Origin: an uncultured Candidatus Saccharibacteria bacterium
Lineage (GTDB): Bacteria; Patescibacteriota; Minisyncoccia; Phycocordibacterales; Phycocordibacteraceae
Assembly: GCA_964371445.1 (NCBI GenBank)
Contig: CAYJLK010000004.1
Location: 1-44,495 of the forward strand
DNA: 44,495 nt
Reading direction: 5' to 3'
Shown here: in pieces, positions 11,543 to 12,642 of the stretch
Layout: every line of letters starts with the position of its first letter
Numbering within the stretch: position 1 is the stretch's first letter
Position numbers and translations under genes: made by a program
The notes under the pieces: generated by a model
The model's database searches: none
What the model saw: only the letters and a program-made list of their open reading frames with translations
Told to the model about the DNA's origin: nothing

Positions 11543-11981
11543 CATCTAGTTTGCCCGCATTACTGCGGGGATCGGACTGTAACTTTATCCACTCTCTTCT
11601 CGAGGTTGGGATAATCAACATTCAGTCTCTCGAGGCGCCGAGATTTTCTTAGCGGTACTCCGCTTTAGAAAATCCAAGTGCAGTCGCTTTCTTAAGCGAG
11701 CTGCCTGCACTTTTTTAGCTTCCTTCGGTGTTGTCCTCGCGTACACAACGCGATTGGATTTCACCGATATAAGTTGATTTCTTCGCATACATTCCTGTAT
11801 GCGACCGCCGTAAGTATGTCTCGCATCCCGTTAGAGACGCTTGCTCGCGCAAGCCAGAACTTTGGTGAAGTTCTTGTCTCTAACGGGACGCACAGTGCGT
11901 CTCCACGCACCTAACAATTCCTCGTGGGTTCAAACCGTTCAATCCTCCATCGCAAGGTTAAACCTTGCGATGAAATGCTGA
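11543..11981 (-). mobile_element. Group I intron (439 nt) at 23S position 2593, ORF-less
   Basis: Exons rejoin as GGGUUCAAACCGU|CGUGAGACAG. U/G boundaries. Core UUAUAUCGGUGAA, AACACCGAAG, CUCGAGAGACUG, AAGUUACAGUCC. IGS CUUACG-GCGGU at 11804-11814. Confidence 0.92.
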
Positions 11982-12642
11982 ACGGTTTGAACCCAGCTCG
12001 CGTACCTTTTTAAATGGCGAACAGCCATACGCTTGGGACCTTCTCCAGCCCCGCGCTAAGGTGAGCCGACATCGAGGTGCCGAACTCCGCCGTCGCTATG
12101 GACGCTTGGGCGGAACTAGCCTGTTATCCCCAGGGTAACTTATATCCGTTAATCTCTGGCCGCATCTAAGGCGTACCATCGGTTCACTATGCTCTGCTTT
12201 CGCATCTGCTTGGGATGTACCCCTTGCAGTTAAGCTCTCTTATGCCATTACACTATCGGCACGGTTTCCATTCGCGCCTAGAGAACCTTAATAGACTCCT
12301 CCGTTACTTTTTAGGAGGATAGCGCCCCACCAAAACTACCCGCCACGCACGGTCCCCCGTTGGATCCCAACGGGGTTAGACATTGCACACAACAAGAGTG
12401 GTATTTCATTGTTGGCTCCACACCAGCCGAAACCGATGCTTCAAAGCCTCCCACCTATGCTACGCATGCAGCACGCAATGCCAATACGAAGCTGTAGTAA
12501 AGCTCCTGGGGTCTTTTCGTCTAACTACAGGTATCCGGCATCTTCACCGGAAGTGCATTTTCACCGAGCGAGTCCTCGAGACAGTTTTCCAGTCATTACA
12601 CCATTCGTGCACGTCGGAACTTACCCGACAAGGAATTACGCT

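Follow-up and report, generated by a model that had tools for sequence, protein, structure and literature searches.

A conserved intron-encoded strand complementary to the 5' splice junction in a subfamily of 23S rRNA group I introns

Why would an intron in a 23S ribosomal RNA (rRNA) gene encode an exact antisense copy of its own 5' splice junction, and how could such a junction still be spliced? We address this question at a 23S gene on the minus strand of the window, by which we mean the whole stretch of 44,495 nucleotides analysed here, contig CAYJLK010000004.1 of an uncultured Candidatus Saccharibacteria bacterium. Two group I introns lie near the 3' end of this gene, and in the first of them, at 23S position 2593 (the L2593 intron), positions 11925-11941 (TGGGTTCAAACCGTTCA) are the exact reverse complement of 11979-11995. 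The exon bases involved, -14 to -1, correspond by the L2593 convention to 23S positions ~2580-2593, which we take to be part of the peptidyl-transferase ring and the 5' strand of helix 93 (H93). Since the L2593 intron with its flanking 23S sequence finds its sole match at this locus across a 98.9% complete genome (745,727 bp), assigned to the Patescibacteria on account of size, relatives and rRNA introns, the 23S gene appears to be present once, and splicing would thus have to succeed despite the long hairpin, hereafter the rod, in which the antisense tract holds the junction. The answer that we favour, with a probability of roughly 0.5, is that this anti-exon tract is a conserved functional RNA element and that the rod is a two-state switch for P1, the 5' splice site's guide helix, combined with a clamp on the exon; the ribozyme would then probably have to swap strands before cutting.

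The anti-exon tract and the intron that carries it

The antisense copy is as exact as the preliminary description of this locus had claimed, and counting one G.U pair the duplex extends to 18 pairs (11925-11942 with 11978-11995). The 17-nt repeat has exactly two matches within the window, against 0.00 expected from 100 shuffles, and the best exon-like run at 2000 random window positions had a median of 8, with a run of at least 16 at 3 of the 2000. The 18-pair run lies at the foot of a quasi-palindrome of 71 nt (11925-11995), whose 35-nt arms are 86% complementary; above these 18 bp the rod hairpin continues with a 2x2 internal loop and a further 14 bp closed by a 3-nt loop. Exon -14..-1 and intron +1..+4 are paired in its base with the anti-exon tract, the 3' half of the tract facing exon -14..-6, its middle, ACGGU, facing the P1 target, and its 5' end facing intron +1..+4. 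The splice-site phosphate sits within this continuous helix, and U(-1) faces A, not G, in agreement with what had been described. The hairpins previously listed as filling the expanded L1 fold as stated, in a structure with a predicted minimum free energy (MFE) of -124.4 kcal/mol (z = -12.7).

The exon ends in ...GGGUUCAAACCGU, its last base being U11982, and is followed by the intron start UCAGC..., whereas the intron ends in ...CUAGAUG and is followed by CGUGAGACAGGUUGG. The exon boundary at 11982 is borne out by contigs from other runs that join ...CGTGAGACAGGT straight to 11982, contigs which may derive from intron-less relatives, and the joint from 11545 to 11981 in run X5 is ambiguous. 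A group I P1 normally requires the 5' splice site to have a wobble pair. The canonical internal guide sequence (IGS) begins 168 nt into the intron, directly 5' of P2, and gives this wobble as U11982.G11808; the earlier placement of the true IGS about 170 nt further in, with a P1 of 5 bp, therefore stands, with the P1 guide at 11808-11804 and the P10 guide at 11814-11809. The rod helix and P1 use the same exon bases and are mutually exclusive.

For comparison, the intron core was matched to 88 of the 222 genomes of the genus, and 36 introns were taken from the best-matching loci, 35 of them from the genus and one (G039) from another family. In the window the core consists of P3 (11773-11778 with 11614-11619), with P4-P6 in between, P7 (11623-11627 with 11575-11579), then P8, and P9 (11554-11570). 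Across the 37 pairs of P2, P3, P4, P5, P7, P8 and P9, including the P3/P7 pseudoknot, 94.3% of the alignment cells of the 36 relatives are paired versus 74.4% after shuffling; both sides have changed in 28 of the 37 pairs, and none of 500 shuffles was as good. The sequence ACGGCGG beside P2 is invariant in 36/36 introns (alignment A2), as is omega-G before CGUGAGAC, and the P10 guide reads NUCACG or NUUACG in 81 of the 103 relatives of the wider sample described below (here and throughout, counts over the 103 and over the wide scan are among the matches listed). With the U.G pair of P1, the P10 guide, the core fold and omega-G all in place, the L2593 insertion is, on these sequence features, a group I intron. 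The Rfam model RF00028 (Intron_gpI) matches 11553-11834 with 19.4 bits (E = 0.12), under its gathering score of 50, and likewise gives only 27.6 bits for the second intron of the window; it covers this intron subfamily poorly. The L2593 intron has no recognisable open reading frame (ORF), a 57-amino-acid ORF at 11615-11788 giving no Pfam match, and no riboswitch family was found within 10000-15200 at E <= 1, nor any aptamer or known regulatory RNA in the intron.

The intact intron bears on one earlier interpretation, namely that the rod is a site for RNase III or for other processing or decay that marks the unspliced precursor. The rod does offer 18 + 14 bp, and the genome encodes an RNase III (G000:C1:124994-125377, 143.9 bits). 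However, a cut in the rod would cost essential peptidyl-transferase-ring nucleotides of what is apparently the only 23S gene, and the group I core, the IGS and omega-G are conserved. The insertion differs from an RNase III-excised intervening sequence in having a full group I core and a stem that includes essential exon bases, and the RNase III intervening sequences known from 23S genes of candidate phyla radiation (CPR, or Patescibacteria) bacteria lie elsewhere, according to the main text of PMC11270868. We regard such a processing site as very improbable.

An assembly error could also produce a fold-back of this kind. In each of two runs (X1 and X2, possibly the source samples), one contig spans 11400-12120 with 0 differences; these contigs come from public assemblies of the individual runs, produced separately from the genome of the window. 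A fold-back artefact of genome assembly is very unlikely in view of these identical contigs from two separately assembled runs, and the rod structure recurs in more than 100 other assemblies. In an RNA run (X16), a contig of a related intron spans 11720-11918 and ends short of the rod, from which we draw nothing, since contigs break at inverted repeats.

Covariation and distribution of the rod

The covariation between exon and antisense tract that the preliminary description had proposed looking for in related L2593 introns is present. The anti-exon tract occurs in 36/36 introns, with at least 17 contiguous pairs in 29 of them. Over 23 rod pairs (alignment A1), 94.4% of cells are paired versus 85.8 +/- 0.6% after shuffling (0/500 shuffles as good), both sides have changed in 8 of the 23 pairs, amounting to 73 cells, and slid controls gave 10-53% paired. 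Exon position -6 is A or G and is tracked by its partner in the tract with no break (AU 27, GC 9), and the pair at intron +1 is UA in 23 introns, GC in 8, AU, CG and UG in one each, and another combination in 2. Five pairs above the internal loop covary as well (alignment A1, columns 23-27 with 134-138), and the upper rod is free to vary in length and sequence among the relatives. Two G.U pairs are specific to the transcript strand, one at +4 in 33/36 introns and one formed by exon G(-11) with U in 10/36; as they are kept on this strand only, they argue that selection acts on the RNA and not on a palindrome in the DNA. When 75 complete introns were placed on a quick tree built from core columns alone, 15 changes were counted at exon -6, 15 at its partner and 16 for the pair. 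The contrasts at exon -6 were concordant in nearly all random pairings and never opposite, and those at +1 were opposite in 1 of 200 pairings.

To place the rod more widely, we searched a single genome of each species for the exon with a following base other than C, which gave at least 120 loci, 117 of them distinct and with enough intron sequence. Among the loci with an (A/G)ACCGU exon, 69 of 87 have an ACGGCGG-type guide together with the rod, and the remaining 18 include truncated loci and other intron types, whereas 27 of the 30 loci with a GAACGU exon have neither guide nor rod. Rods were found in Saccharibacteria, Parcubacteria/Paceibacterota, and Nomura-, Kaiser- and Moraniibacteria. 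Homologous introns with an ordinary short L1 and a guide 8-15 nt from the splice site lack the rod, in Acidimicrobiia (L074, L082, L110, L115) as well as in CPR bacteria (L076, L108); the rod is accordingly best described as an insertion into L1 of one L2593 subfamily. An antisense-like 9/10 match ~212 nt into Acidimicrobiia L2593 introns was rejected as a second case, as it lies inside the LAGLIDADG ORF of these introns (...RFGFYIR...). The scan also met insertions at or next to 23S 2593 that start with UGUGAG or UGCGAG (L048, L059, L093, L096, L126, L142, L143, L145, L158) in Chloroflexota, Actinomycetota, archaea and other hosts; no group I guide is present in them, and they may belong to another class of intron.

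This distribution bears on the suggestion that a fold-back duplication left the tract behind as a neutral relic, that templated repair maintains it as a DNA palindrome, or that it arose as an assembly artefact. The tract would originate most simply by inverted duplication of the junction, and the comparison with rod-less relatives does show an insertion in L1. However, compensatory changes accompany the rod in the 103 introns that have kept it across distant CPR lineages, its conserved G.U pairs would turn into C.A mismatches when read from the opposite strand, and the separate contigs described above are identical. We find a relic hardly credible.

The 103 rods, 33 from the genus and 70 from the wide sample, were compared base by base assuming no bulge. 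Their common form has two helices, exon -14..-4 (helix A) and -2..+9, split by a C x A mismatch at -3. Helix A has 10/10 pairs in most rods and at least 9/10 in all 103, and a linker with a median of 55 nt and a minimum of 13 nt separates it from the IGS. Opposite C(-3) stands G in 29/33 genus rods; among the 70 rods of the wide sample the opposing base is A in 46, G in 16, C in 7 and U in 1, which leaves C(-3) unpaired in 54. The perfect helix of 17-18 bp is on this distribution a derived minority state. G(-2) faces C in 96/103 rods (in the wide sample C in 63/70 and U in 6/70), and opposite U(-1) there is A in 83, G in 12, C in 7 and U in 1 of the 103 rods. These last counts speak against the rod being itself the P1 of the first step. 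Its topology is that of a looped P1, and a G opposite U(-1), as in L008, would suit that role, but U(-1) faces A in the great majority, no P10 guide adjoins the tract, and the canonical P10 + P1 guide beside P2 is invariant and common to the rod-less homologues. A rod acting as P1 is extremely improbable.

Proposed strand exchange, possible braking and other roles

The energies of the competing helices, calculated as nearest-neighbour duplex sums of natural slices, are close at the splice site. The exon segment ACCGU pairs with -5.0 kcal/mol to the tract (ACGGU) versus -5.3 kcal/mol to the guide (GCGGU), two partners that differ only opposite U(-1), and helix A alone, counted over exon -14..-6, contributes -12.1 kcal/mol. 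We propose a local strand exchange, not a melting of the whole rod. The rod would form first in transcription, its 3' strand being made ~40-60 nt after the exon, and would park the single-stranded peptidyl-transferase-ring/H93 strand and the splice site in an inert Watson-Crick helix with U-A at the site. The folded core, recognising the wobble, would then let the IGS capture the last 4-5 exon bases, ACGGU being replaced by GCGGU to give the reactive U.G wobble. Helix A would stay paired and serve as another site of exon binding, keeping the 2.6-kb 5' exon tethered during both steps, the upper helix would act as a P1 extension, and the P10 guide would be left free. Given the minimum linker of 13 nt, both guides could sit on adjacent exon segments. 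The C(-3) x A mismatch of most relatives would be the nucleation point for the exchange, and its change to a G-C pair in the genus would make the switch tighter, so that exchange should slow. Among the interpretations put forward in the preliminary description, a switch that sequesters the splice site is the one that fits best, as the helix is conserved with covariation and excludes P1.

Several observations weigh against this reading. The full duplex amounts to -29.1 kcal/mol, far above P1 were the whole rod to melt, and the hairpin goes from -50.6 kcal/mol when closed to -34.8 kcal/mol with five bases opened. Coexistence of helix A and P1 is a pseudoknot outside the reach of the folding tools, and the case for it consists of nearest-neighbour sums and topology. 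The exon and the IGS are invariant, which makes a covariation test of P1 and P10 impossible and leaves these two helices to the sequence itself. The independent contrasts on supported branches number just 3 for exon -6 and 5 for +1, too few for a significant sign test. Avoidance of the wobble in the rod is not strict, given the 12 rods with G opposite U(-1), and perfection of the rod does not follow IGS strength: where G stands opposite C(-3), 29 introns have U and 15 have C as the fifth IGS base, and where A stands there the numbers are 22 with U and 23 with C, so that no clear link of the perfect rod to a 5-bp or a 4-bp P1 is seen in the 103 rods.

The same numbers can be read as those of a pure brake or timer, in which the rod would merely delay 5' cleavage, for example until an assembly factor, a helicase or a ribosomal protein opens it, throttling maturation of the 50S subunit and providing no tether. 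The nearly constant pairing of the splice-site dinucleotide (G(-2) with C in 96, U(-1) with A in 83 or G in 12 of 103) would suit a brake, as would the great stability of the closed hairpin and the removal of the C(-3) mismatch in the perfect form of the genus (29/33, versus 16/70 in the wide sample). However, helix A, which is unneeded for hiding the splice site, is the best-conserved part of the rod and covaries with the host exon; most relatives retain the weak point at -3; and the intron yielded no aptamer or known regulatory RNA family. We hold the brake to be possible, though on balance doubtful.

A role after splicing or in ribosome assembly would have the tract mask the peptidyl-transferase ring in cis, in the manner of a small nucleolar RNA, or would have the excised intron bind nascent 23S rRNA in trans and slow ribosome production. 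The tract is by its nature complementary to 23S ~2580-2593, the folded excised intron keeps only UCAG/UUGA of the rod base paired, and relatives of the intron are seen in an RNA library, where DNA carry-over is possible. On the other hand, the covariation at +1..+4 amounts to selection for a pairing specific to the precursor, and the MFE structure of the excised intron pairs part of the freed tract with the intron 3' end. This role seems to us improbable. A further reading we offer as an unlikely conjecture: the rod may be an intron-encoded chaperone and checkpoint for the peptidyl-transferase centre, which would shield ~2580-2593 against misfolding and too early an assembly until the ribozyme is folded and would couple the last step of 50S maturation to splicing, and once excision has freed the 14-nt tract, nascent 23S rRNA may be its target in trans. 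These bacteria are reported, in the abstract of PMC12641178, to have only about half the usual ribosome-biogenesis factors.

Neighbouring elements and known systems

The features of the locus are collected in Table 1. Besides the rod, L1 holds an element that sheds light on the earlier suggestion of a second insertion, which holds in one part and fails in the other: an insertion exists in the form of the 67-nt three-way junction, and the antisense tract is not that insertion. Among 17 complete introns the 67-nt element is common only to that of the window and that of G016 (L005), and in run X5, which belongs to another study, one contig is missing exactly 11822-11888. Copies with the same 12-nt termini and differing inner hairpins occur at other loci of relatives (L168-L172; G009, G033, G005). 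They suggest a dispersed family of ~65-nt hairpins with conserved termini CCCGTTAGAGAC...GTCTCTAACGGG, two variable inner hairpins and short target duplications, and 3 of 6 copies in relatives sit right after an ATG. With these features, which are those of a miniature inverted-repeat transposable element (MITE), the three-way junction is best classed as a separate mobile hairpin element. The rod is not MITE-like, one of its arms being exon and the tract having no second copy in the genome. The likeness of GAUG-CGAGACA to the 3' junction, which had been pointed out before, turns out to be fortuitous, as it arises from the end of the inserted element and the TGCG duplication abutting an AGACA motif whose GACA core is found in 54/103 relatives.

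Table 1. Coordinates of the L2593 intron, its parts and its neighbours in the window (counts over 103 relatives are among the matches listed)
Feature	Position	Strand	Basis or remark
5' exon -14..-1, 5' strand of the rod (helix A and P1 target ACCGU)	11982..11995	-	sequence, joined contigs
L2593 group I intron	11981->11543	-	439 nt; junction sequences and covarying core
Intron +1..+4 (UCAG), base of helix C, pairs with 11939-11942	11978..11981	-	fold and covarying +1 pair
Upper rod: 2x2 internal loop, 14-bp stem, 3-nt loop	11943..11977	-	fold
Anti-exon tract UUGAACGGUUUGAACCCA	11925..11942	-	complementarity, covariation
CGAGG motif directly 3' of the rod	11920..11924	-	GAGG <=9 nt after helix A in 72/103
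Small hairpin, stem GUGCGUG/CGCAC...	11894..11911	-	fold; in many relatives, missing from others
67-nt three-way junction, termini CCCGUUAGAGAC...GUCUCUAACGGG, flanked by UGCG duplication	11822..11888	-	insertion comparison
GACA motif before the P10 guide	11817-11821	-	54/103 relatives
P10 guide CUUACG, pairs with 3' exon CGUGAG	11809..11814	-	duplex -4.9 kcal/mol
P1 guide (IGS) GCGGU, pairs with exon ACCGU, U(-1).G at the splice site	11804..11808	-	duplex -5.3 kcal/mol
P2 hairpin, directly 3' of the IGS	about 11783..11803	-	compensatory changes in 8/8 pairs
Ribozyme core	11554..11778	-	37-pair covariation test
Omega-G (11543) and first six 3'-exon bases CGUGAG (11542-11537)	11537..11543	-	sequence
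Second group I intron (L2657), splits the sarcin-ricin loop between ...CCCUAGU and AAAGAA...	10695-11479	-	starts 11479; 3' boundary ~10695 by eye

Smaller observations concern the periphery of the intron. The CGAGG motif is similar to the first bases of the 3' exon, and a weak pairing between it and the P10 guide is conceivable. A ~70-nt module (...GCAGCUCGCUUAAGAAAGCGACUGCACUUGGAUUUUCUAAAGCGGAGUACCGCUAAGAAAAUCUCGGCGCC) in the P6 extension, ~11635-11708, recurs at other loci of relatives (G061, G099, G103, G227 and others) and occurs twice in the G001 intron (L006); it has the look of a peripheral RNA module that is mobile or can be reused. The palindromic rod tip (...CGCAAGGTTTAACCTTGCG...) has an exact 21-nt copy on another contig of the same genome (G000:C9:15772-15792; L003 ~1500-1521), and the rods of several relatives bear similar CAAGGnnnnnCCUUG tips. 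Matches of MIR9746 (27.6 bits) and mir-203 (23.4 bits) at 11925-11995 were set aside as reflecting hairpin shape only, far under the gathering scores, and a pairing of GGUUUG (tract) with CAAACU (3' end) in the excised intron was rejected because the 3' end does not, by eye, follow the CAGACC exons of relatives.

A 63-nt exon separates the L2593 intron from the downstream L2657 intron, whose ORF at 10845-11330 encodes a LAGLIDADG_1 protein (38.8 bits). The L2657 intron has an ordinary short P1 and no anti-exon rod, its best exon-like run of 8 being at background. The rRNA genes are unlinked: the 23S gene is followed by 5S and one tRNA and then, ~9 kb on and on the same strand, by the 5' part of a 16S gene that leaves the window (1-891, 10160-10379).

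The kind of intron and its insertion site are known, and we found no published account of the rod. Both intron sites, 2593 and ~2657, are already catalogued for CPR 23S genes in the main text of PMC11270868 (J Bacteriol 2024), which thus agrees with our locus in site, host group and intron type and includes the LAGLIDADG_1-type neighbour at ~2657. That main text, as distinct from its supplements, contains neither 'splice site' nor 'internal guide' and describes no rod pairing with the exon. More generally, the literature covered, which leaves many older papers outside, yielded no description of an intron-encoded helix that buries the L2593 5' splice site. Cyanobacterial L2593 introns have, as described in a passage of PMC1995217 and compared by that description only, a short P2, a short P5 and P7.1/P7.2. 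The rod-less L2593 introns of Acidimicrobiia and CPR bacteria resemble the introns studied here in that their core (CUCAUAUCGGUG..., ACCGAGGGAAG, GUAUAGUC) is homologous, their P2 is short and their IGS lies beside P2, but differ in the nearness of the IGS to the splice site (8-15 nt), in a small L1 and in having no anti-exon tract.

Normally a single short guide helix sets the 5' splice site of a group I intron. The introns described here form a large natural subfamily that has a further and longer strand for binding the exon, placed where an apparently single 23S gene is most critical. Competitors of P1 are the exon hairpin P(-1) in Tetrahymena pre-rRNA and, in pre-tRNAs that bear introns, the anticodon stem. 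They likewise sequester 5' exon bases needed for P1, but they are exon-exon helices of the host, whereas the rod is intron-encoded and covaries with the exon. With the P1ex/P10 system of Tetrahymena, as treated in parts of PMC7877785, the rod shares 5'-splice-site helices that form and then give way, and an overly stable P1ex is thought there to hinder splicing. The 3' strand of that P1ex is itself the P10 guide and leaves the exon uncovered, whereas here a separate strand covers 14 exon bases and the P10 guide is free. In the cyclic di-GMP-responsive group I ribozyme of Clostridioides difficile (PMC3984707, in part), alternative folds also decide if, and at which place, the 5' splice site is used, but they do so through a ligand aptamer and shift the site in an mRNA leader, whereas in the L2593 intron no aptamer was found and the site is fixed.

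If the hand-off from rod to P1 with helix A as a clamp is true, the rod would offer a simple system in which to study strand-exchange switches formed in the course of transcription, and it might help to account for the tolerance of CPR bacteria, with their few assembly factors, for many rRNA introns. Over 100 variants occur naturally, differing in whether the -3 mismatch is present and in whether the splice site has U-A or U.G, and they constitute a ready mutational series. Group II introns bind their exon bipartitely, through the intron-binding sites IBS1/IBS2 and the exon-binding sites EBS1/EBS2, and engineered trans-splicing group I ribozymes carry extended guide sequences. In these systems, likewise, a second intron segment beside the primary guide strengthens the hold on the exon. 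They belong to another ribozyme class or are man-made, whereas here the second site overlaps the primary target and buries the splice site. On the strand-exchange reading, the rod would be a natural counterpart of both the bipartite exon binding of group II introns and the extended guides of engineered ribozymes.

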